From contig JAYFQU010000009.1 in the NCBI GenBank assembly GCA_034926785.1, positions 118-64,117 on the forward strand: 64,000 bases of DNA, in the 5' to 3' direction. The notes under the pieces were generated by a model that was not told the origin of the DNA, did no database searches, and saw only the letters and a list, made by a program, of their open reading frames with translations. The position numbers were made by a program, and so were the translations under genes. Positions within the stretch are counted from its first letter, which is position 1, and each line of letters starts with the position of its first letter. This DNA is from Christensenella sp. Its GTDB lineage: Bacteria > Bacillota > Clostridia > Christensenellales > CAG-138. Shown piece by piece: positions 1 through 59,697 of this stretch.

Positions 1-20
1 GGACTTTGTCGATGGGCTGA
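1..20 (-). repeat. Partial copy of intergenic repeat family B; only the 5' end is present because the window edge cuts it
   Basis: The reverse complement of 1-20 is tcagcccatcgacaaagtcc. This matches the first 20 nt of the family B copies at 8198 and 45641. It starts directly after the stem-loop at 21-44. Confidence 0.5.
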
Positions 21-44
21 ACGGGAAGCATTTTCACTTCCCGT
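21..44. terminator. Stem-loop downstream of the phosphohexomutase gene
   Basis: acgggaag / cttcccgt form an 8-bp stem with a 7-8-nt loop. On the minus strand it lies just after the gene stop and is followed by the family B repeat rather than a U-tract. Confidence 0.45.
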
Positions 45-3756: not shown

Positions 3757-4029
3757 GTAAAAAATTGAAAGAAAATGAAAACGATCTGCAACGATTTGCC
3801 AATTTGCCGAGTGTTATAGATAGAAGCGGGTTTGGTCGTTTGCAATACAAAAACGATTGTGGCATACTGGTTTTACGAACAGGCTTTCGTTCGTCCATGA
3901 CACTTCTCGGCGATATTTGGCGGATGTCCATCCCGGTCATGCGCCGCAACAAACAACGGCCTCCCGAACCACAGAACCCACGCAACCGACGCGCGGCCCA
4001 TTTTGCCGCATGTACGGAAAGGAGAGCTT

Positions 4030-6963
4030 ATGAACCGAACGATACGACTCAACAGATTGCTCGCACTATGGATCGTGCTTGCGCTTGCGCTGGTGGTTCC
4101 CGCCATCGCGTTGGCGGAGGGTGGACCAACCGCGACGCTGTATTCCCCTTCGACGGGGGCTTCCACCTCCGGCAATCAGAAAATCATCTTTTCGCTGAGC
4201 GAGCAGGTTTCGCTGGTGAGCGGGAGGAACATTACCATTACACCCGCCGGCGGAACGCCTTCTGTTGCCGCTGCTACCAGCGGGACGCGGCTCGGTAACG
4301 CGAGCACGGGGCCCTGGTATGTCAGCTATAAGCTGAGCGACTTTAGCCCCGCGCTGACGCTGACCCCCAATACGACATATAACGTATTGGCCCAGGCAGG
4401 GGCATTTGAGGCCGCCTCGACCCCCAGCGCGGAAGCAACGGGAACGTTCACGACCGGAGACGCAGGCGGCACGCTTGTGATCTACACCAAGACCAACAAC
4501 CAAACGCTCCAAACCGGCGGTGTTGATATCGTCAGCGGGAGCGCAGTTGCCGGCGGCAGCCCAATCACCGCTATCAACACAAGCGATGGAAGCTATGTTC
4601 CGGTGAAGACCGTCTACGTCAACGGCAGCAAGACCGACGGGGTCGCTCTCTCGTCCTATGTGCCTTCCGGGGAACTGGAGGTGTATTACACCCGCACGGA
4701 CGGTACGCTGACCGGCTCTGCCGCGATCTCCGGTCAGGAATACATCGGCGGCGAACTCAGCGGAACGGTTTCCGATCTGAATCAGCCGGACACCAGCGGG
4801 ATTCGTTTTCAATGGGTGCGCGTGGGCGATGGCGGCAATGAGCTCCTTGAATCCGGCGGCATATCCATAAAGCACCCGGTCGTAGCCGCCGACCTGGGAA
4901 AGGTGATCCGACTGGATGTCACGGACACAACGCTCACAAGCGGAACGCTCTCCGACACGACGGGAACCATCGCCAAGGCGCCGTATACCGGCAGCGTTCA
5001 AGATCCTGCTCTGGAAAGCAGCACCGGCACCTCGATCACGCTGGTCTCCGTCTCGGGGTATGAGTATTCGCGCGACGGCGCAACGTGGCGGACCGACCCG
5101 ACCTTCTCCGGCCTGACGGCTGGTACGCCTTATGACTTCTACCAGCGCGTCGCGGAGACGACGACGACCCTTGCCTCCGGCACGAGCAACAAGGTGACGC
5201 TTTCCATCAAGGCGACGCTCACCGGAACAGTCTCCATCAGCGGCACCGCGCAGTCCGGCGTCGCGTTGACAGGTTCCATTACCGGCACCACCAACGCCTC
5301 CGGCACCATCACCTATGCCTGGTCGCGCGGGGGAACGCCGGTTGGCACCAACAGCGCAACCTATACGCCCAACGCGGCGGATGTCAACTCCACATTGACG
5401 CTGACGATTTCAACCAGTGAACAGAACGGGACGATTTCCGCGACCACGGCGGCGGTCAAGAAGGCTGCGAATACCACGGTGCCCGCCGCGCCAACCATGG
5501 CGAGCGCAACGGCGACCACCATCACGCTCAACGCCACAGGCGGATATCAATATTCGCTCGGCGGAACCTACTGGCAGGATACCACGACCTTTAACAATCT
5601 GGTTGCGGGCGCAACCTATACCTTCTATCAGCGCGTTGCAGAGACGAGCGCGGTGCTTGCCTCAGGCGCGAGCACGGGCGCAAACTTCACCACGCTTCCG
5701 ACGCTGTCAGGAACCATTCTGTCCAGCGGAGAGGCAAGGTATGGCATCACAATGACCGTAAACCTCTCCGGCACCAACAACACGGGCACGTTGACCTATA
5801 CCTGGAAGCGCGGGACGATGGTTGTCGGAACGGGCACAAGCTATGCCGTTCAGGCGGCGGATGTGTCTAATACGCTCTCGGTTGAGGTGACAAGCTCCGT
5901 TCAGGGCGGCAGCGTGACGCGCTCCTTTGGAACCGTTGCCAAGGCATATTATGTTGGTAATGCGCCGGATGCGCCGACGCGCTCCAGCCGCACCACCACC
6001 AAGATCGTGCTGAAGGCGGTTGACGGCTATGAGTATTCGCGCGGCGGCACAACCTGGCAGGACAGCACGACCTTCAGCGGACTGAAAGCCGGCACGAGCT
6101 ATACCTTCTACCAGCGTGTGAAGGCGACGGCTACGACCGAGGCTTCCGACAAGAGCGCGGCCTATAAGACCTCCACGGTGGCATCGTCCACATCGGACGG
6201 CGGGGACGCCGACACCCCCAGCAAGACGCCTACGCCGAAGCCGGGAACAACGCCGACGAATGGCGCGAGCGGCACCACGCTGTATAACTACACACTGACA
6301 GACGATAACACGCGCATCCTCTACTCGACGATGAAGAGCCTCGCAGAGGGAAATAAGACGCAGGATGTCACGATCAAACAGAGCAATGTCGAATTCACAT
6401 TCCCCAAAGGAACGATGACGGACACCTATACGCAGCTCTGGTATGACTTCGGCACGACGATCAACAACTCGATTGCGGAACAGACGGCAAAGCAGATCGC
6501 CGGGGATGCGTATGTTGCGACGATTCACTATAACTACAGCGGCGAACTGCCGGGCAAGGCGAATATCCGCTTCTGGCTCGGCGCCGCACAGGCAGGCAAG
6601 ACGCTGTATTATTATCTGCTCAACGCGGATAACACGCTTACCTTCCAGCAGACGTCAACCGTGGACAGCACCGGCTGGGCTTCCGTTACGCAGACGCACT
6701 GCTCGGACTATGTGTTCCTGAGCCGTGATATCGCGAGCGCGAGCGCCTCCCCGTCGGTCTCCCCGTCGGCGGATCCCTCCGTCTCGCCTCTGCCCTCGCC
6801 CAGCGCTTCACCGGAGCAGAACGGCGGTGGATTTACCTCTGACGGATGGTTCATCGCGGCGATTATTCTTATCGCGGTTGCGTTGATCGTCGGCGGCATC
6901 TGGCTCTACACCAAGAGCCGGGATGATCGAATGGACGACGATGACGACGACACTGATTTCTAA
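4030..6963 (+). CDS. Large secreted, membrane-anchored surface protein with three repeated Ig-like/FN3-like modules
   Basis: Signal peptide MNRTIRLNRLLALWIVLALALVVPAIALAEG. The module ...GYEYSRxGxTWxxxxTFSGLxAGTxYxFYQRV... occurs three times. The C-terminus has an S/P-rich linker, a TM helix (WFIAAIILIAVALIVGGIWLY) and an acidic tail. RBS is GGAAAGGAGAG. Confidence 0.75.
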   Translation: MNRTIRLNRLLALWIVLALALVVPAIALAEGGPTATLYSPSTGASTSGNQKIIFSLSEQVSLVSGRNITITPAGGTPSVAAATSGTRLGNASTGPWYVSYKLSDFSPALTLTPNTTYNVLAQAGAFEAASTPSAEATGTFTTGDAGGTLVIYTKTNNQTLQTGGVDIVSGSAVAGGSPITAINTSDGSYVPVKTVYVNGSKTDGVALSSYVPSGELEVYYTRTDGTLTGSAAISGQEYIGGELSGTVSDLNQPDTSGIRFQWVRVGDGGNELLESGGISIKHPVVAADLGKVIRLDVTDTTLTSGTLSDTTGTIAKAPYTGSVQDPALESSTGTSITLVSVSGYEYSRDGATWRTDPTFSGLTAGTPYDFYQRVAETTTTLASGTSNKVTLSIKATLTGTVSISGTAQSGVALTGSITGTTNASGTITYAWSRGGTPVGTNSATYTPNAADVNSTLTLTISTSEQNGTISATTAAVKKAANTTVPAAPTMASATATTITLNATGGYQYSLGGTYWQDTTTFNNLVAGATYTFYQRVAETSAVLASGASTGANFTTLPTLSGTILSSGEARYGITMTVNLSGTNNTGTLTYTWKRGTMVVGTGTSYAVQAADVSNTLSVEVTSSVQGGSVTRSFGTVAKAYYVGNAPDAPTRSSRTTTKIVLKAVDGYEYSRGGTTWQDSTTFSGLKAGTSYTFYQRVKATATTEASDKSAAYKTSTVASSTSDGGDADTPSKTPTPKPGTTPTNGASGTTLYNYTLTDDNTRILYSTMKSLAEGNKTQDVTIKQSNVEFTFPKGTMTDTYTQLWYDFGTTINNSIAEQTAKQIAGDAYVATIHYNYSGELPGKANIRFWLGAAQAGKTLYYYLLNADNTLTFQQTSTVDSTGWASVTQTHCSDYVFLSRDIASASASPSVSPSADPSVSPLPSPSASPEQNGGGFTSDGWFIAAIILIAVALIVGGIWLYTKSRDDRMDDDDDDTDF

Positions 6964-7108: not shown

Positions 7109-7993
7109 ATGGCACAGACCATCAGCGCGGCGTTGAAAAGACACCTGCTCCTCATGCAGCGCGATGAGATCACCGGCAGCATACTATATGAAAAAATCGC
7201 TGTCCGGCAGAAGGACGACAAGAATAAACAGGCTTTTTTGGAGATTTCCCGCGCGGAGCGGGGACATTATGAAACCTGGAGGGCGTATACCGGCGAGGAT
7301 GCCGCGCCAAACCGGATCCGGATCGCGCTGTTTTTACTGCTCAGCCGCATCCTTGGCGTAACGTTCACGATCAAGTTTTTTGAAAAAGGGGAGGATATCG
7401 GGATCGGCCTGCTGAGGGATATCGAGCAGGAACTGCCCGAGGCGCGGCGCGTGATCGCCGAAGAGGAAGAGCATGAACGGCGCCTGATGGAGATGATTGA
7501 CGAGGAGCGGCTGCACTACGTCGGTTCCATCGTGCTGGGCCTTAACGACGCGCTCGTGGAGCTCACGGGAACCATTGCCGGCCTGACCTTTGCGCTTGCG
7601 AACAACCGCCTCGTTGCGCTCTCCGGCATCATTACGGGCGTATCGGCAACGCTCTCCATGGCGGCCTCCAACTATCTGGCGCAGCGGGCGGAAGGGAACA
7701 GCAAGGCGCTTAAGTCCAGCGCATATACCGGCGTGGCGTATTTGATTACCGTCGTGCTCATCGTGCTGCCCTACCTGTTGCTTCCGAATGGATGGTATCT
7801 CGCCGCGTTCGGGATCATGATCGCGCTCGTGGTGCTCATCATTCTTTCGTTTAACTACTATATCTCCGTGGCGCAGGATCTGCCGTTCTGGAAACGGTTT
7901 GGCGAGATGGTGCTCATCAGCCTCGGCGTTGCGGCGCTCTCGTTCGTCATCGGTCTTGCGGCAAAACGGCTGCTTGGCATCAATGTCGGGTAA
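7109..7993 (+). CDS. VIT1/CCC1-family iron/manganese transporter with an N-terminal ferritin-like domain
   Basis: 294 aa. The N-terminus is a rubrerythrin/ferritin-like helix pair (EITGSILYEKIA..., ERGHYETW, EEEEHERRL). The C-terminus is the VIT membrane domain (LGLNDALVELTG..., SMAASNYLA). Confidence 0.8.
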   Translation: MAQTISAALKRHLLLMQRDEITGSILYEKIAVRQKDDKNKQAFLEISRAERGHYETWRAYTGEDAAPNRIRIALFLLLSRILGVTFTIKFFEKGEDIGIGLLRDIEQELPEARRVIAEEEEHERRLMEMIDEERLHYVGSIVLGLNDALVELTGTIAGLTFALANNRLVALSGIITGVSATLSMAASNYLAQRAEGNSKALKSSAYTGVAYLITVVLIVLPYLLLPNGWYLAAFGIMIALVVLIILSFNYYISVAQDLPFWKRFGEMVLISLGVAALSFVIGLAAKRLLGINVG

Positions 7994-8160
7994 CGGGACA
8001 ACCGCTCTTTGCCTTTCGCCCTCCGGATTTCGAGCGGCAAAGCGCTGCGAAGAAAGCGCCCGACTCCGGGTGATCCGTCACGGTTGCAAAGCCGCCACAG
8101 CCGGAATCTGCTGGGTAAGGGCGCAGGCCTTTACAATCCCAAGATTTTTTTGACAGACTG
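7994..8160 (-). repeat. Intergenic repeat family A, copy 1 (about 167 nt)
   Basis: The reverse complement starts cagtctgtcaaaaaaatcttgggattg and ends ggcaaagagcggttgtcccg. By eye it aligns along its length with the copies at 29744 and 52646. It abuts the VIT stop codon on one side and the hairpin 8161-8197 on the other. Confidence 0.8.
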
Positions 8161-8197
8161 CGGAGAGCACCCCCGATTATACGGGGGGTGCTCTCCG
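8161..8197. terminator. GC-rich stem-loop between convergent genes, with a repeat element on each side
   Basis: cggagagcacccc cgattatac ggggggtgctctccg gives a stem of about 13 bp. No T-tract is left on either strand because the repeats begin at the stem base. Confidence 0.5.
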
Positions 8198-8367
8198 CTC
8201 AGCGCATCGACCAAGTCCCGCGGGCTTTGCCGATGGGTTTTAGTTTGGGTTAAAATAACGCGATTCGCGCCATTTTTTCACAAATTGGGCGAGTGAATCG
8301 CCGAATTTGATGGAACATGGGGGATTTTCGAAATTCTAACCCCTGGCGGGGGTTGTCGATCCACTGG
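8198..8367 (+). repeat. Intergenic repeat family B, copy 1 (about 170 nt)
   Basis: It starts ctcagcgcatcgaccaagtcc. By eye it is roughly 85 percent identical to 45641-45813. It contains the internal hairpins cgcgattcgcg, ggcgagtgaatcgcc and gggggattttcgaaat. Confidence 0.8.
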
Positions 8368-8399
8368 CTCCTTTGAACTCTTTTATACGTTGGTGCGGG

Positions 8400-9848
8400 T
8401 TAGAGACTGTCCCCAAAATCCTTGCGGAACTTCGCTACCAGCTGTTCCTGCCAGTCTCCGATGGGTTCCAGACGGCCAAAGAAGAAGCGGAGCGTCGCCG
8501 GCTCTTCGACAAAATTCAGTCCGCCGACCAGCGCGCGGTTTTCAAACAGCCAGCTGATGCGGTCTACCGCGTAGAGAATCTGGCTCATGGTAAACACGCG
8601 GCGCGGGAGGGCGAGGCGCAGCAACTCCATGCTTGCGATGGGCTCCGTTCCGTCCGGCTCGCGCTGTTCGGAGAGGGTTCCGCGCTCCATTCCGCGCACG
8701 CCGCCTGCGAGGTAAACCGCGGTTGCGAGCGCAGCCGCAGGGTAGACATGGTCGTCCAGATGCGAGAGAAACTTTCTCGCGTTGATGTGGCAGCCAAGGC
8801 CGCCGGCGGGGGTGACGACGGGTACGCCGCGCTTCTTTAGCTCCGCAGCCATGAACTCGATGAACTGCGGCCCTTGCGAGATCACGGTTTCATCCATCGT
8901 TTCCTCCAGACCGACCGTCATAGCCTCCATCTCGCGTACGCTCATGCCGCCGTAGGTGAGAAAGCCCTCGAAGAGCGGGATGAAATCCTTCATGCGCTCA
9001 TAGTGGCCCTTGTCGTTCATCGCCATACCGCCGCCGCGCGCAAAGCCGAGCTTTCGAGCGGAGAAATAGATGATATCCGCGTTGGCGCAGATGGCGCGCG
9101 TGATTTCGCGAATGCTCCAATCCCTGCAGGCGGCCTCGCGCACCTTGATGAAGTGCAGATTGTCCTGCATCAGGCTCGCGTCCAGCACGACCATGATGCC
9201 GTGTTCATGGGCGATCTTCGCCGTCGCGGTCATGTTTTCCAGTGAGAAGGGCTGACCGCCGATGAGGTTTGTGCCCGCCTCAAGGCGGATGAAGGGGATG
9301 TTCTCCGCGCCGTTGCGCGCGATGCATTCCTTGAGCTTGTCCAGGTCGATGTTGCCCTTGAAAGGAAAGTCGCTCTCGGGGTTGAGACCCTCGTCGATGA
9401 CGATCTCCTCCACGCGCCCGCCGACGCGCGTGATATGCGCCTTTGCAGTGGTGAAGTGGAAGTTCATCGGCACCACGCTGCCGGGCTTGACGAACGACTC
9501 CGCGATGATGCTCTCGCAGGCGCGTCCCTGATGCGCGGGCAGAAAATACTTTGTGCCGAACAGCTCGGCGATCTTTGCCTCCAGACGGTAGAAGGTTGCG
9601 CTTCCCGCATAGCTGTCGTCCGCGGTCATCATTGCGGCGGTCTGCTTGTCGCTCATGGCGTTGACGCCGCTGTCGGTGAGCATATCCAAAAAGACATCCT
9701 CGTTGCGCAGCAGAAACGTATTGTTGCCCGCGGCTGTCATCGCTTTGTACCGTTCCTCAACCGGCAGAAGGTTGAGTTTTTGCACGACGCGAACCTTGTG
9801 CATTTCGAGGGGGAGCTTTTCTCCTGAAAACAGTTTAACTTCGCTCAT
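8400..9848 (-). CDS. Beta-eliminating lyase family enzyme (tyrosine phenol-lyase / tryptophanase family, PLP-dependent)
   Basis: The segments NTFLLRNEDVFLDMLTDSGVNAMSDKQ, YAGSATFY, PAHQGRACE, FKGNIDLDKL and the lysine region FSARK resemble TPL/TnaA along the full length. The start was moved to ATG 9848 (MSEVKLF) with RBS GGAGGAAC. Substrate is not assignable by eye. Confidence 0.85.
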   Translation of the reverse strand: MSEVKLFSGEKLPLEMHKVRVVQKLNLLPVEERYKAMTAAGNNTFLLRNEDVFLDMLTDSGVNAMSDKQTAAMMTADDSYAGSATFYRLEAKIAELFGTKYFLPAHQGRACESIIAESFVKPGSVVPMNFHFTTAKAHITRVGGRVEEIVIDEGLNPESDFPFKGNIDLDKLKECIARNGAENIPFIRLEAGTNLIGGQPFSLENMTATAKIAHEHGIMVVLDASLMQDNLHFIKVREAACRDWSIREITRAICANADIIYFSARKLGFARGGGMAMNDKGHYERMKDFIPLFEGFLTYGGMSVREMEAMTVGLEETMDETVISQGPQFIEFMAAELKKRGVPVVTPAGGLGCHINARKFLSHLDDHVYPAAALATAVYLAGGVRGMERGTLSEQREPDGTEPIASMELLRLALPRRVFTMSQILYAVDRISWLFENRALVGGLNFVEEPATLRFFFGRLEPIGDWQEQLVAKFRKDFGDSL

Positions 9849-9963
9849 AATTCTGGTTCCTCCGATAGATCTTCTCTTTTTTTCAAAATGAGCACCCGCA
9901 TGGCTGACTTGCTTCTGAGCGCTGATTTTTCTGTTTCGACCAAACAGACCCCTGCTGCGGAGC

Positions 9964-10312
9964 ATAAAAAAACGCCCCTTGCAGTGTTGCAAGAGGGCGA
10001 TTGCGCATCGCGGTACCACCTCGGTTTGCCGCGTCCTCACGGGCGGCGGCCTTCACGGGTACGGATTCGCGGAGAAAGCCCCGCTGTTTCGATACCCTTC
10101 CTTTGATAACGGGAGGAAGCCCGGCGAAACCCTACTGAAAACAATCAGGTGACCTTCCTGTTCGTTCAGGCGGCGGCTGGTTGCGCGTATTCGCGGGTGA
10201 ATCCGGCTGCCTTGCACCATCCGGCAGTTCTCTTTCGAATCCTTTGCGGCGCTGGATGAGAGCGCCAACCCGTTACTTCTTCGCAGTCATAGCCTGTATG
10301 CTGTTTGATTTA
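9964..10312 (-). promoter_or_regulatory. T-box leader (tRNA-sensing riboswitch), best-fitting specifier UAC (Tyr), with an intrinsic terminator
   Basis: Read on the minus strand. The T-box sequence is AGGUGGUACCGCG (plus 10009-10020). The terminator is cgcccucuugcaacacugcaaggggcg followed by a U-run (plus 9966-10000). Stem I has the K-turn AUGA, specifier-loop 5' side AAGAAGUAA, the AGAGA bulge and the distal GGUGCAA loop. The 3' loop reads GAA-UAC-G (UAC = plus 10187-10189). Confidence 0.85.
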
Positions 10313-29708: not shown

Positions 29709-29743
29709 AACAGCACGGCCTTTGCCAATCAGGCAAAGGCCGC

Positions 29744-29898
29744 CAGTCTGTTAAAAAAGTCCTGGGATTGCTAAAGGTCGCAGCCCTTGACCCATCGGTT
29801 CCGCTTGCGGTGGCTTTGCCACCGTGACGGATCGCCCGGAATCGGGCGGTTTCTTCGCCGCTCTTTGCCGTTTGAGGCCCGGAGGACGAGAGGCAAAG
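29744..29898 (+). repeat. Intergenic repeat family A, copy 2 (the 3' end diverges or is truncated)
   Basis: It starts cagtctgttaaaaaagtcctgggattg directly after the hairpin ggcctttgcc aatca ggcaaaggcc. It aligns with copies 1 and 3 up to ...gagaggcaaag. Confidence 0.75.
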
Positions 29899-29936
29899 GC
29901 CGCTTAGGGAAGCCGATTCGGGGCATTACCGCGCGG

Positions 29937-45607: not shown

Positions 45608-45640
45608 CGATTCCGCTGACAAGGGCGGGGGATCCCCCCG

Positions 45641-45813
45641 CTCAGCCCATCGACAAAGTCCTGCGGACTCTGCCGATGGGTTTTACTTTGGGTAAAAATG
45701 ACGCGAATCGCGCCATTTTTTCACAAATTCGGCGAATGAATCGCCAAATTTGAAGGAACATGGGGGATTTTCGAAATCCCCCAAACCCCCTACTGGGTTT
45801 GTTGATGCTCTGG
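45641..45813 (+). repeat. Intergenic repeat family B, copy 2 (about 173 nt)
   Basis: It starts ctcagcccatcgacaaagtcc directly after the hairpin gcgggggatccccccgc. It ends ...gtttgttgatgctctgg and is followed by a near-duplicate hairpin gcggggaatcccccccgc plus T7. Confidence 0.8.
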
Positions 45814-45881
45814 GCGGGGAATCCCCCCCGCTTTTTTTGCGCGGAAAATTGTGAAAATATTGTAGAAGCCAGCCTTCCTGC

Positions 45882-49699: not shown

Positions 49700-49988
49700 C
49701 AAACAAAAACCCCCGACCAAATCGATTTGGTCAGGGGCGTAAATTCGATACGCGGTACCACCCTGGTTTGACTGCCGGTTCCCCGAACAATCCTCATTAA
49801 CCTCCAACAAGGCCGTAACCGGTAACGAGGTCAGTCGTCTCGCCCTAACCCAACGGGTTCAGGCGAACAGCTCCGGGATGAGTCATACACACGGTTCGCA
49901 GCACCGGCTCGCACCAACCGCCGGTTCTCTTAAGCTGTAGAGGCCGCGTCTTGTTCCCTTCAGCGCCTTTCAATAAATAATATATGAT
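49700..49988 (-). promoter_or_regulatory. T-box leader, specifier CUC (Leu), with an intrinsic terminator
   Basis: Read on the minus strand. The AGAGA bulge, the distal UGGUGCG loop and the specifier loop UGA-CUC-A (CUC = plus 49880-49882) are present. The T-box sequence is CAGGGUGGUACCGCG (plus 49751-49763). The terminator is ccccugaccaaaucgauuuggucggggg followed by a U-run. Confidence 0.88.
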
Positions 49989-50659: not shown

Positions 50660-51982
50660 ATGCCGCAGGATAAATACGGCTCCGGCCAGGGTGGCCAAAA
50701 CAAAGGTTCCTACAACCGCTCCGGCGATAAGCCGCAGGGTGGTTATAAAAAGACATACGGCGACAAGTCACAGGGTGGTTATAAAAAGACATATGGCGAC
50801 AAGCCGCAGGGCGAGGGCTATCAAGGCAAGCGCTCCTATGGCGACAAGCCGCAGGGAGGCTATGGCAAGCCTTATGGCGAACGCTCCTATGACAAAAAGC
50901 CGTATGGCGACAAGCCACAGGGCGAAGGCTATCAGGGCAAGCGCTCCTATGGCGACAAGCCGCAGGGAGGCTATGGCAAGCCCTCTGGCGAACGTTCCTA
51001 TGACAAAAAGCCGTATGGCGACAAGCCGCAGGGCGAGGGCTATCAAGGAAAGCGTTCTTACGATAAGAAACCGTACGGTGAGAAGTCCTTCGAGAAGAAA
51101 CCCTATGGCAACAAGCCGTATGAGAAGAAGCCGTACGATAAAAAGGCGTCCTATGACGACCGCCGCGCGGAGGAGATGAAGCTGCGCGACCGCCTGCTGG
51201 AGGATGAAGCCCCCGTCGATCAGGACGAGCTTCCATTCCTCATCCTCGGGCGTAACGCCGTCAAAGAGGCCATCAAGAGCGAGCGCAGCATCGACCGCAT
51301 CGAAGTCGTCGGCGACCCGGATGGCTCGCTGCGCGAAATCCTCGCCCTCGCGCGGGAACGCAAGCTCATCGTCCGTGAGGTGGACAAACGCCATCTGGAC
51401 GAGATCTGCCTGCCATTCGGTCACGGCGGCAAGCCGGGCAACCACCAGGGCATCGTGGCTTACGCCGCGGGCGTGGAATATTGCACGGTGCAGGAGATCC
51501 TCGCACTCGCCAGAGAAAAGAAGGAAGATCCGTTCGTGATCGTTCTCGACGGCATCACGGATCCGCATAATCTCGGTTCCATCATCCGCAGCGCGGAGTG
51601 CGCGGGCGCGCATGGCGTCGTCATCGGTAAGCGCAGGAGCGCCTCCGTCACCGCCGCAACGGTCAAGGCCAGCGCTGGTGCGACGGAGCATGTGCTCATC
51701 GCGCGCGTGGTCAACATCCCAGCCGCAATCGACGAACTCAAGCGTGCGAAGCTCTGGGTTGCGGGCGCGGATATGAAGGGGCAGCCGATGGATAAGCAGG
51801 GGCTGAATGGCCCGCTCGCGCTGGTAATCGGCGGCGAGGGAGATGGGCTGAGCAAGCTCGTTGCGGAAAAGTGTGACTTTCTGGTTGCTATCCCGCAGTA
51901 TGGCAAGATCGGCTCACTCAACGCCGGCGTTGCCGCGGGCGTGTTGATGTTTGAAAAGAAAAGACAGGATAAGGCTGAATGA
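50660..51982 (+). CDS. rlmB: 23S rRNA (guanosine-2'-O)-methyltransferase RlmB/YacO (SpoU/TrmH family) with a roughly 185-aa repetitive K/G/Y/P-rich N-terminal extension
   Basis: The C-terminal 250 aa hold the SpoU substrate-binding and methylase domains (LDGITDPHNLGSIIRSAECAGAHGV, LVIGGEGDGLS, IPQYGKIGSLNAGVAAGV). The N-terminus consists of GDKPQG.GY..K.YG repeats. Confidence 0.8.
   Translation: MPQDKYGSGQGGQNKGSYNRSGDKPQGGYKKTYGDKSQGGYKKTYGDKPQGEGYQGKRSYGDKPQGGYGKPYGERSYDKKPYGDKPQGEGYQGKRSYGDKPQGGYGKPSGERSYDKKPYGDKPQGEGYQGKRSYDKKPYGEKSFEKKPYGNKPYEKKPYDKKASYDDRRAEEMKLRDRLLEDEAPVDQDELPFLILGRNAVKEAIKSERSIDRIEVVGDPDGSLREILALARERKLIVREVDKRHLDEICLPFGHGGKPGNHQGIVAYAAGVEYCTVQEILALAREKKEDPFVIVLDGITDPHNLGSIIRSAECAGAHGVVIGKRRSASVTAATVKASAGATEHVLIARVVNIPAAIDELKRAKLWVAGADMKGQPMDKQGLNGPLALVIGGEGDGLSKLVAEKCDFLVAIPQYGKIGSLNAGVAAGVLMFEKKRQDKAE
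50795..51075 (+). repeat. In-frame tandem repeat, 111-nt (37-codon) unit, about 2.5 copies, inside rlmB
   Basis: The unit encodes GDKPQGEGYQGKRSYGDKPQGGYGKPYGERSYDKKPY. It is repeated at 50795 and 50906 with few substitutions, and a third partial unit follows. Confidence 0.7.
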
Positions 51983-52622: not shown

Positions 52623-52645
52623 AAAAGGATGGCGGCCCATCCTTT
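52623..52645. terminator. Terminator hairpin after sigH, copy 1 of a 23-nt direct duplication
   Basis: aaaaggatggcggcccatccttt (stem ggatgg / ccatcc). An identical 23-mer recurs at 52840-52862, where it runs into a longer T-tract. Confidence 0.6.
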
Positions 52646-52839
52646 CAGTCTGTCAAAAAAGTCCCGGGATTGTTAAGGGCCGTAGTCCTTAACCCATCGA
52701 TTCCGGCTGCGGTGGCTTAGCCGCCGCGACGGATCGCCCGGAGTCGGGCGATTTCTTCACAGCTCTTTGCCGTTCGGAGTCCGGAGAACGAGAGGCAAAG
52801 AACGGTTGTCCCGTCAAAAAACTCGTTTTTTGACGGCCT
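52646..52839 (+). repeat. Intergenic repeat family A, copy 3 (about 168-nt core plus a 3' hairpin)
   Basis: It starts cagtctgtcaaaaaagtcccgggattg. The core ends ggcaaagaacggttgtcccg at 52813, followed by the perfect hairpin ccgtcaaaaaa ctcg ttttttgacgg. It is bracketed by the 23-nt duplication. Confidence 0.8.
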
Positions 52840-52880
52840 AAAAGGATGGCGGCCCATCCTTTTTTTGTATCGCAAAATTA

Positions 52881-54011: not shown

Positions 54012-56885
54012 TTAGCCAACCTTGACATAGGAGGCGTAGCAGTAGCCCTTGGTACCGTTATAGTCCACATAACACCAGCCGTTGGCGGTGCTGTAGATCG
54101 TCACGGTGACGCCGCGATCCATCGTGAGCAGAATCTTCGAGCTGGTGCTTGTGGAGGGCTGCGCGCGGAGATTGAGCCGCGCGATAACGACGCCTGTGGT
54201 TTCACTCGTCTTCACCGTCTCGGCGAGAGTGACGTATTTTGCAAATACATAGCCCTTGAGCTTGGCGGAAGGCACTTCAATTTGATACCAACTGCCCGAG
54301 GAACCCACGACTTTTACGCTCGTGTTCCGCGCGAGCTTGCCAATGCTGTTGTAGCGCGTGTCCGCACCCGTGCGCAGGTTCACGCCGGAGGCGTTGATAT
54401 AGCCCGCGCTGGAAGAGGTGCCGCTGGAACCCGAAGAGCCGGATGATGTCTGCGTAATCGAAACATACTTGGCATAGACATAGCCTTCCAACCCGGTGGA
54501 GAGCACGCGTACGCGATACCATGAGCCGATCTTTTCATAGAGCCCAAGCCGGGTGTTTTTCAGCAGCCGCCCATAGCTCCGGGTTGTCGTACTTACCCCT
54601 GCGCGAATGTTGACGCCGTCTGCGTTGATGACGCCGCCTGCGGCGTAATTAGGCGCGAGTGTTGGCGTTGGCGCCGGGGTCGGCGTTGGCTGCTGCGTCG
54701 GGGTTGCCGCAGCTGTCGGCGTTGGGGTCGCGCCCGGATTAACCGCTGTCGGTACGGGGCTTGGAGTCGCGCCCGGATCAACCGCCGTGGGAACGGCAGT
54801 TGGCGCGGGCGTTGCGCCCGCTTGGGTCGGCGCGGGTGTTGCACCGGGATTTTGCGCGGTGCTTTGGGTGATAACGACATAATCCTTGCTGATGAAGCCG
54901 TCCTGCCCCGTGGACATCGCCTTCACCTTATACCAGCCGCTTACCATGCCATAGATGCCGAGCTGCGTGTCCTGCGAGAGCTGACCCACCGCGGAATAGC
55001 TCGTGGCCGGGCCGCTGCGGTAGTTGACCGCGCTGGCGGAAACCTTGCCCTGAGCAATCAGGCCACTGCCTGTGAGCATGATGTAGTCATAGCGGATAAA
55101 GCCATTGTTTCCGCCCGGGGTAAGGACGCTATACCATTCGCCCGTCATACCGAGCAGCGTCACCTGCGTGCCCGCGGAGAGGGTTTCCAATACGCTGCCG
55201 GTTGTAGATGCCTTCGAGCGCACGTTGACCGTGCCGCCCTGCACCTTTCCGGTGGAGGTGGTCGTCTGCGCGGTCGAGGGCTGAGATGCGCCCACCGTTT
55301 CGGGGAAGACATAGCTAAGGGTGCCGAGCGTCGCGCCCGGATAGTAATAGCTCAGGATTTCGCGGTAGTTCATGCCGCTGTTTGCCATGAACTGCGCGCC
55401 GCGTTGGCTCATGCCAACGCCGTGGCCGTACCTGGCATGGTAGAGATACCATCCGCCGTTAGCCGGCGCGGCATAAAAGATCTTAAGGACGGTGGAGGGG
55501 AACAGCCCTGCGGCCACCAAATCGCTGAAGCGGAAACTGACGCTCACCGGGCTTGTTCTCTGCGTCTCAATGGCGGGCGTCGGCGACGGGGTCGGGTCAA
55601 ACGCCGGCGTAGGGGAAGGCGTTGGCGCAAAGGTCGGCGTCGGGGACGGGGATGCCGTCTCCTCCGGTGTCGGCGTTGGGGTTTCTCCCTCGGGCAAAGG
55701 GGTCAACGTGAAATCCGACGGAACCTCCGTCGGCTCCGGCGTCGGCGCAAAGGTCGGCGTCGGGCTCGGTGTTGGCGCGAAGGTCGGCGTCGGACTCGGC
55801 GTCGGCGCGAAGGTCGGCGTCGGGCTCGGAATCAGCGACTCCAGCAGGTTTGCCTGAACGGTTGCCGTGATGGCGATGGTCGTATGGTTCAGGTCGTCCG
55901 CATAGCCAGCCGTTCCGGAGGACACAACGCTGTCAATCGACTGAATGCCGCCGAAATAAAAGTTTTTCGGGATCAGTCCGCGCTCGGCGATGGCTGCCAT
56001 GAGGCGCGCATCCAAAAAGGCGAACGCCGCCGTGCCCATATCCCTTTCACTGTAGTTTGCCGGCACAAAGATCTTTTCCACCGGCGTGGAGGGATTCTGC
56101 AGATCGTAGGGATCCGCGCCATAGTTATATGCGCCGTCATAGATGGGGCTTGTCCAGCGGTCGGAGGGTAAAATCATCCAGCCGCCGTTGCTCGCCGCAT
56201 AGTAGCAGAGTAGGGGGACGTTGTTGTAGTAGAGCACGTCGCCCATGGTCTGGTCTACGGCGTTGATAACGTTTTGATAGCTGGGGTCATAGCCCTTATA
56301 AACCTGATCATCGGCGGTATCGAGAATATCATACGTTCCGCTTTGTCTGATCTTGAGCAGACCATATCCCTTTGCCGCGAGGGCCTGCGCCTTGAGCGCC
56401 TCCAGCGGGAAGGTGTTGCTCATCTCATAACCGACTACGCCGTAGAGATAATGCGACAGCGGCACGCGGTTGACGGCGACCACCGTTCCGTTGCTCGCGG
56501 AGAAGGCGAAATTGCCGAGGTAGTTGCGCGTACCGGCCGCGGTCTTGACCGTGAGATAGCCCGCGTCGCGCGAAAGGTTGACGCGCTCTATGGTTGCGCC
56601 GCTGCCGGAGTAAAGCTGCCCCTCGCTGGAGTGCTTGACCGTGACGGTACTTCCGCTGGCGGAGATGGTCAGTGTTCCGCCCGTAAAGGTTCGCTGCGTT
56701 TGGGCGAGAGTGTAGGTTCCCTTAACCGGGACGGACAACGACTGCGCCGACTGCGTGGAAAGCAGAACGCGGATAAACGACACGCCGGAATCCGCGGGTG
56801 CGGAAGAAACCGGAGCGACCAACAGAAGCAGCGCCAGCGCGAGAGCGGCGGCGATCCCTCTGCGGACCCGGAAGAATCGTATCAT
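54012..56885 (-). CDS. SpoIID/LytB-domain cell-wall protein with a Pro/Thr-rich linker and five C-terminal SH3b domains
   Basis: Signal peptide [29 protein letters not shown]. The SpoIID domain is split by a P/T linker (...[12 protein letters not shown]..., [15 protein letters not shown]). It is followed by five repeats of the GxVNVR/YRSGPxTSY...WYxV SH3_3 type. Confidence 0.8.
55570..55830 (-). repeat. In-frame 33-nt tandem repeats encoding the [11 protein letters not shown] linker
   Basis: The translated linker reads [35 protein letters not shown], plus a second PT block. The DNA shows aggtcggcgtcgg... units with 33-nt periodicity. Confidence 0.6.
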
Positions 56886-59473: not shown

Positions 59474-59697
59474 ACAACCAAATAGCTGAATCCTTCGCGT
59501 TGCGGCGCGGGGGAGCGGGAGAACCAATTTATTGGGGTGAATCCGGTGGGCACCATCGGTAGGACAGCTTTTCGTCCGAACCCGTCAGCTAATCTCGTAA
59601 GCGTAGAAAGCAGAGTTTTTCAACGTCTATTTCGCATCTGAAAAACCGATGATGTCCTTTTTGCGCTTGCAGTCTCTGCGGGCGCATGTTTTTTTGC
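59474..59697 (+). promoter_or_regulatory. ydaO-type (c-di-AMP) riboswitch with a terminator expression platform
   Basis: Pseudo-symmetric conserved blocks are present: GAAUCC...GCGGGGGAGC...ACCAA...GGGGUGAAUCC...CCGAACCCGUCAGCUAAUCUCGUAAGCGU. They match the ydaO motif as I recall it from B. subtilis. An 11-bp terminator follows (tgcgcttgcag tct ctgcgggcgca, 59662-59686) plus a T-run. Confidence 0.78.

Follow-up and report, generated by a model that had tools for sequence, protein, structure and literature searches.

The convergent genes for a VIT-family protein (7109-7993, plus strand) and a beta-eliminating lyase (8400-10040, minus strand) are separated by a 406-nt spacer made up of three parts: a copy of one repeat family, A, on the minus strand, a GC-rich hairpin, and a copy of a second family, B, on the plus strand (Table 1). 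The window, meaning the whole stretch of 64,000 nucleotides analysed here, corresponds to C50:118-64117 of a 2.47-Mb, 94%-complete assembly in 64 contigs. The hairpin (arms and loop GCGGAGAGCACCCCC-GATTATACG-GGGGGTGCTCTCCGC) folds as DNA with -21.2 kcal/mol (z = -6.1; none of 200 shuffles was as stable), and the reading of a first-pass annotation, in which a single hairpin carries family A off its minus strand and family B off its plus strand, holds to within 1-2 nt. The A copy, A1, starts with CAGTCTGTCAAAAAAATC at 8160, its 5' CAG being the complement of 8158-8160, and is truncated at its 3' end at model position 170 of 183, where it adjoins the VIT stop codon (7991-7993); the B copy, B2, has its CAG start at 8200-8202, ends in ...CACTG at 8366, and has no hairpin copy 3' of it. 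Both are old: A1 is ~83% and B2 ~90% identical to its own family, B2 belonging to an older subfamily that is ~90% identical to young B copies. The sole ORF across the locus (8009-8296) spans A, hairpin and B and is mechanical.

Neither strand of this locus has a T-tract, and a search of the spacer for terminator-like sites left none remaining. Outer hairpin copies are absent on both sides, so that no target-site duplication is seen there, and the 12 of 16 positions at which the sequence following B2 (8367-8399) agrees with the loop and 3' arm of the hairpin are not a significant match. The VIT and lyase genes are likewise convergent neighbors in six congeners, where a short spacer (under ~100 nt in the three spacers read closely) contains one hairpin and neither A nor B. 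Hairpin sequences differ from species to species, and the one at this locus was not found in the six spacers, the terminators of these different species having diverged.

All the copies that the first-pass annotation had named elsewhere in the window are present, and each adjoins a hairpin of a different sequence. They had been described as beginning directly 3' of a stem-loop: every copy in the window does adjoin one, but the complete copies sit between two copies of it. The second A copy, A2, is fused at its 3' end, at the word GGCAAAG, to the apparent right arm of a downstream copy of its hairpin (...GAGAGGCAAAGGCCGC), an arrangement that points to a microhomology deletion. The complete B copy, B3, is 98-99% identical to dozens of other B copies.

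Table 1. Coordinates of the A and B elements, their hairpins and a decayed transposase gene (window positions unless a contig is named)
Feature	Position	Strand	Remarks
Family B 5' end, cut by the window and contig start	1..21	-	within the unit 1..43
Hairpin CGGGAAG-TGAAAATG-CTTCCCG adjoining the B copy at the window start	23..43		
Family A MITE copy A1	7991..8160	-	nhmmer match C50:8108-8276 = window 7991-8159
GC-rich hairpin, 15-bp stem, 9-nt loop	8160..8198	none	from fold and congener spacers
Family B MITE copy B2	8199..8366	+	5' (T)CAGCGCATCGACCAAGTCC to 3' ...GTTGTCGATCCACTG
Hairpin GGCCTTTGCC-AATCA-GGCAAAGGCC	29717..29743	none	directly 5' of A2
Family A copy A2, model positions 1-160	29744..29903	+	
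Left hairpin copy of B3, GGGCGGGGGATCCCCCCGC	45623..45641	none	downstream of gene ending at ~45607
Complete family B copy B3, CAGCCCATCGACAAAGTCC...GGGTTTGTTGATGCTCTG	45643..45812	+	
Right hairpin copy of B3 (GGCGGGGAATCCCCCCCGC), ~45813-45832, then TTTTTTT	45813..45839	none	
Left target-site duplication copy of A3, AAAAGGATGGCGGCCCATCCTTT	52623..52645	none	23-bp terminator hairpin
Complete family A copy A3, CAGTCTGTCAAAAAAGTCC...TTTTTTGACGGCCT	52646..52839	+	
Right copy of the 23-bp hairpin of A3, then TTTT	52840..52862	none	
Decayed B-type IS1182 element	G000 C16:23300-23750 (L009 1240-1680)	-	57 codons and a piece of A

Copies were located across the genome by iterated nhmmer and counted if they were at least 60 nt long. 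This survey yielded 110 copies or fragments of A and 142 of B, that is, ~250 in 2.5 Mb, which together constitute 1.6% of the genome. Both families are non-coding (A ~190 bp, B ~170 bp), with neither a protein family nor a conserved frame found in either. A copies are 80-94% alike, and most B copies 97-99%. Within the genus, represented by Christensenellaceae-labelled MAGs, A is present in 23 of 40 genomes and B in 17 of 40. The expectation that a genome-wide tabulation of the 40 nt upstream would reveal stem-loops is borne out for family A: the median fold is -18.5 kcal/mol compared with -8.1 at random positions, and 88% of the A flanks fold at -10 kcal/mol or below versus 31% at random. Equally well founded is the proposal of structure-directed insertion at terminators, since, for 94% of the 133 insertion units, a gene 3' end lies no more than 130 nt away (30% of random windows), and 54% of the units fall between convergent ORFs (3% of random windows). 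The elements show no orientation bias relative to the T-tract and are inserted both ways round.

Complete copies have the same locus-specific hairpin on both sides, in other words a target-site duplication of the whole palindrome. By a threshold on flank-to-flank alignment, the flanks match in 48 of 67 complete A copies and 39 of 56 complete B copies, versus 8 of 2000 random positions; in the least-diverged halves of the families the counts are 30/33 for A and 23/28 for B, so the copies without a duplication are mostly old ones. The duplicated segment measures 16-31 bp in the MITEs (median 22.5-24) and 17-35 bp in full IS copies (overall median 24) and is exactly the palindrome, mostly with no unpaired bases at its ends. 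Duplications often begin with A and end with T, from the flanking A- and T-tracts, and the T-tract itself is kept by the downstream hairpin copy and absent from the upstream one. The hairpins are thus host targets and not parts of the elements, as had been proposed from the window: they differ between loci, match within a locus, and occur alone in the congener spacers. Two A copies (C15:49372 and C10:4103) have swapped hairpins, which would be the signature of recombination between copies after insertion, as expected of duplications.

The ends of both families form terminal inverted repeats. Judged by eye on the consensus ends, CAGYCTGTCAAAAAAG of A agrees with the reverse complement of its 3' end, GAGGCCGTCAAAAAAC, at 12 of 16 positions, and CAGCCCATCGACAAAG of B agrees with CAGAGCATCAACAAAC at 13 of 18; the consensus termini are CAG...CTC in A and CAG...CTG in B. 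The AAGTCC motif that had been noticed in both families (end sequences CAGTCTGTCAAAAAAG in A and CAGCCCATCGACAAAG in B) is real and represents the inner part of the terminal inverted repeat, kept across the whole IS clade described below.

Twenty-three hairpins are common to two adjacent elements, 10 of them in tandem, 7 head-to-head (as at 8160) and 6 tail-to-tail; such pairs would arise because each insertion doubles the hairpin and a later insertion enters one of the copies. An array at G000 C8:38135-38700, in the order A, hairpin, reverse B, hairpin, A, with the hairpin CGCCGCGCTAGGCGGCG occurring at least three times, shows repeated insertion into duplicated targets. The elements also have a bearing on assembly and annotation. 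Of the 128 contig ends, 68 fall within a copy (62 in B and 6 in A), both ends of C50 among them, and family B is chiefly responsible for the fragmented assembly. Overlaps of ~139 nt between contig ends suggest a k-mer-limited short-read assembly. In the genome of another species of the genus (G014), in which an IS1182 transposase was not found, B copies reach 96% identity with the ones described here, and the VIT protein, a housekeeping protein, only ~80%; this discrepancy suggests that B or its master element has spread horizontally, and recently.

Searching the relatives with the IS1182 model led to full-length elements in the same genus, with A-type (CAGTCTGTCAAAAAAGTCC) or B-type (CAGCCCATCGACAAA) ends and, in each case, a duplicated hairpin as flank. 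The A-type element (L005) reads GAGCGGGGGTTCCCGCTC-T, CAGTCTGTCAAAAAAGTCC ... 475-aa ORF ... TTTGACGGACTG-A, GAGCGGGGTTCCCGCTC-TTTTTT, with the same hairpin on both sides; its left hairpin is common to a reverse-oriented A-like MITE, which is the layout of the 8160 locus. The B-type element (L003, with a twin, L002) reads AATCCCCCGTTAATACGGGGGATT, CAGCCCATCGACAAAC ... 471-aa ORF ... GACGATGGGCTG, AATCCCCCGTTAATACGGGGGATT, the hairpin being 24 bp long. The 5' end of family A is identical to that of L005 over 19 of 19 nt, and that of family B to L003 and L002 over 15 of 15. Against NF033551, the IS1182 equivalog (cut-off 270), the transposases of L005 and L003 score 373 bits (372.6) and 443 bits (442.7), respectively, and both have domain-level matches to Pfam DUF772, DDE_Tnp_1_6 and DDE_Tnp_1. 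The genus thus holds intact IS1182-family relatives that match A and B in their ends and in their duplications, and it is DDE transposases of this family that they encode, where the first-pass annotation had proposed to look for same-end genes among Y1/TnpB, RAYT and reverse transcriptase systems. Its suggestion of one common machinery is right in that the machinery is related, and too strong in that the A-type transposase shares only 36% identity with the B-type one, so that the two MITE families have separate, related partners.

The genome's own assembly, 94% complete, contains no intact IS1182 transposase. It also gave no match to the IS30 transposase model (NF033563; controls were detected), to PF01609, or to the models for Y1/RAYT (PF01797), TnpB (PF07282) and reverse transcriptase (PF00078). 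The enzyme behind the recent burst of B, whose copies are 97-99% identical, was thus not found in this assembly. A single rve match falls in an IS3-family element (G000 C34:1-1300, L001) that has two overlapping ORFs and whose ends (TGAACTGAACCCCG) bear no relation to those of A and B. On C16 there is a 57-codon remnant of a B-type transposase, 82% identical and with an in-frame stop, near a B-like 3' end. The codons are fused at CCATCGATTCCGG to A positions 53-183, which are followed by the IS 3' region and by the B-like end (GTTGTCGATACTCTG) beside a hairpin and T-tract; the 5' inverted repeat is missing. We considered this remnant as a sign that the internal sequence of A derives from a transposase gene; the fusion to A position 53 at CCATCGATTCCGG looks more like a microhomology junction than evidence of origin.

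Families A and B are short, non-coding and multicopy, with terminal inverted repeats, target-site duplications and autonomous elements that have the same ends. By these inverted repeats and hairpin duplications, by their location at terminators and by the intact IS1182 relatives, they are very probably MITEs that were cut down from two IS1182-family lineages and are moved in trans by DDE transposases of that family. A DDE transposase produces a duplication when the two 3'-OH ends of the transposon attack both target strands with a 5' stagger. We hypothesize that the enzymes acting on A and B would read no sequence, and that a perfect palindrome would serve as their target, which in practice means the stem-loop formed by a Rho-independent terminator. 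On each strand one transposon 3' end would attach at the 5' foot of the stem, with the joints bracketing the whole palindrome; gap repair would then leave one full hairpin copy on each side of the element, and the length of the duplication would be the length of the hairpin. If the target were an extruded cruciform, both feet of the stem would meet at one four-way junction, whatever the length of the stem. Since the stagger always equals the palindrome, over a range of 16-35 bp, this is the simplest geometry, and it is solely from the geometry of the duplications that we infer a cruciform target, with attack at the 5' feet as its probable chemistry. Each insertion would turn one target into two, and later insertions would build arrays of elements with the same hairpin between them.

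Applied to the window, this scheme suggests that the hairpin at 8160-8198 is the surviving middle copy of a former bidirectional terminator of the VIT and lyase genes. A single such terminator would have received one A and one B element; the middle hairpin copy would have been kept, and the outer two copies, together with the 3' end of A (its last 13 model positions), would have been lost later. Because neither element there has a second hairpin copy, this history is modelled on what other loci show, and the sequence of steps is put forward as the probable one.

The same elements and the same enzyme family could also act on a target that is not a cruciform, an alternative we consider possible, though unlikely: the transposase may recognize hairpins where DNA becomes single-stranded for a short time, at replication forks or inside transcription bubbles, or a flexible dimer may bind half-sites of the palindrome in B-form DNA and cut at variable spacing. 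Sequence data do not separate these geometries, terminators are often transcribed and unwound, and the biochemistry of the IS1182 family is uncharacterised, PMC4923244 and PMC5678879 giving models only. A dimer on B-form DNA would, however, have to accommodate staggers of 16-35 bp, which is hard for a single transpososome, and an attack on single-stranded DNA does not alone account for symmetric joints on both strands and leaves the lack of orientation bias unexplained.

Explanations that dispense with the IS1182 family fare much worse. That A and B are RNA modules selected by the host (3'-UTR elements or small RNAs), their association with hairpins being functional, is very improbable. In favor of this reading, A and B would be transcribed as part of 3' UTRs, several hairpins lie within A, and both families are kept across the genus; yet covariation, analyzed in 64 copies of A and 56 of B, gives no support for a conserved fold, with only one double-compensated pair per family, and the inverted repeats, locus-specific duplications and autonomous ISs fully account for the pattern. 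Nor does Rfam match either family: at gathering thresholds the whole window has only a T-box leader (49730-49972, minus strand, 118 bits) and a c-di-AMP riboswitch (59474-59618, plus strand, 95 bits), both above the gathering score and located elsewhere, and at E values up to 10 the region has only chance miRNA and snoRNA matches. The systems that the first-pass annotation had brought up, namely insertion 3' of hairpins by an HUH/Y1 system (IS200/IS605 or REP/RAYT) or a class C group II intron, do use hairpins, and A and B do begin right after a stem-loop. IS200/IS605 elements, REP/RAYT systems and class C group II introns have neither terminal inverted repeats nor target-site duplications, and A and B have both; moreover, the genome has no Y1, TnpB or reverse transcriptase gene, no Rfam family, intron models included, matches the region, and insertion occurs in both orientations, so that these systems have next to no chance of being responsible.

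A transposase of the IS30 family, such as IS1630 encodes, is also extremely improbable as the mover of A and B, in spite of a close resemblance in behavior. IS1630 was reportedly described by Calcutt, Lavrrar and Wise in 1999 (J Bacteriol 181:7597). According to the title of that paper, as given in PMC3317919, this IS30-family element of Mycoplasma fermentans duplicates the inverted repeats of terminators, and duplications of 16-26 bp are mentioned in PMC3317919; by these accounts its duplications, like those of A and B, are of variable length and made of terminator palindromes. IS1630 differs in being autonomous, 1.4 kb long and present in few copies, whereas A and B are non-coding, 170-190 bp long and present in more than 100 copies each. 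Its transposase belongs to the IS30 family, of which the genome studied here has none, and the ends of A (19 nt) and B (15 nt) are identical to those of ISs that encode IS1182-family transposases.

Classical bacterial MITEs (Correia/NEMIS, RUP, MITEAba12) make short, fixed duplications of 2-9 bp at sequence-defined sites. A and B resemble them in being short, non-coding, multicopy and intergenic, with terminal inverted repeats and movement in trans by a related IS, and differ from them in duplicating an entire stem-loop, whose length varies, at sites defined by structure. To our knowledge, hairpin duplication has never been shown systematically for the IS1182 family or for MITEs. A and B represent MITE families that are new within a known IS family, and their style of insertion is documented and little studied.

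Within the IS1182 family, IS1272 and the TnSha1/TnSha2 elements of staphylococci target terminator hairpins (PMC4923244, PMC5678879). They share with the partners of A and B the transposase family (a likeness at the family level), the use of hairpins as targets regardless of primary sequence (many of these hairpins are confirmed terminators), and insertion in both orientations, and the element ends can fold into stem-loops. The outcome of insertion is different: IS1272 and TnSha1 delete the hairpin partly or wholly and make no duplication, a mode called 'IR-replacing' (PMC4923244, PMC5678879), whereas A and B duplicate it exactly, most of their copies having the hairpin duplicated intact. In the model of PMC5678879, attack on the 3' feet or on the 5' feet of a cruciform separates deletion from duplication, and path b of its Fig. 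13, attack on the 5' feet, predicts duplication of the hairpin. Siguier et al. 2015, as quoted in PMC4923244 and PMC5678879, state that 'some members target palindromic sequences', with no data given in the quotation; in the literature on IS1182 and palindromes, hairpin duplication in annotated IS1182 ISs was found only as an allusion. ISEfa7 of Enterococcus faecium, an IS1182-family element by annotation, has a transposase 46% identical to the A-type one, and the copy examined is interrupted by IS256.

Beyond the genus, we sampled 47 full-length relatives of the L003 transposase from public genomes. Perfect hairpin duplications of 17-35 bp flank 37 of them, found in many Paenibacillus species, several Enterococcus species and one Erysipelotrichaceae MAG. 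The duplications typically have an A-run on one side and a T-run on the other, and the ends follow CAGRCTGT.GA.AAAGTC...CTG; the unnamed Enterococcus and Paenibacillus relatives are autonomous and share with A and B both the CAG...AAAGTC ends and the hairpin duplications. To judge from these 37 relatives in other genera, hairpin duplication is a property of a wide IS1182 clade, not confined to this genome. Some Enterococcus copies (L042, L045, L047 and L052) are without a hairpin duplication; they have an extra internal end sequence, TGTCTACAGTCT, ~50 nt upstream of the ATG, which recalls the tandem left-end duplications described for IS1272.

More tentatively, and with the balance tipping slightly against it, we put forward a wider generalization: a large IS1182 clade across the Bacillota (Christensenellales, Paenibacillus, Enterococcus and Erysipelotrichaceae) may read the shape of DNA rather than its sequence and integrate at the four-way junction of an extruded cruciform, with a duplication that is always exactly the palindrome, long or short, such that terminators serve as self-renewing safe havens. 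If this were true, each insertion would preserve termination for both neighbors and double the number of targets, which would account for MITE blooms exceeding 200 copies in a genome of 2.5 Mb. Little is understood of how a DDE transposase recognizes DNA by structure instead of sequence, a question that can now be tested directly: the ~90 MITE and 37 full-IS insertions in which the duplication is the target stem-loop form a natural data set for a structure-reading transposase. More than 200 copies are tolerated; the insertions avoid genes, and each leaves a hairpin and a T-tract for its neighbors. For the host, each element lengthens the 3' UTRs of the flanking genes by ~200 nt, and between convergent genes, where the 54% of sites noted above lie, an element should give overlapping antisense transcripts.

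The window also contains repeats within coding sequence. A 986-aa secreted, membrane-anchored repeat protein with an acidic C-terminal tail is encoded at 4003-6963 on the plus strand and includes three units of ~485 nt, at 5017, 5503 and 5986. Tandem coding repeats occupy 50722-51115 (three 111-nt units, and 36-nt units), and GC-rich 30-nt coding repeat units of the GGCGTCGG type lie at 54664-55829, on the strand opposite to that of the repeats at 50722-51115.
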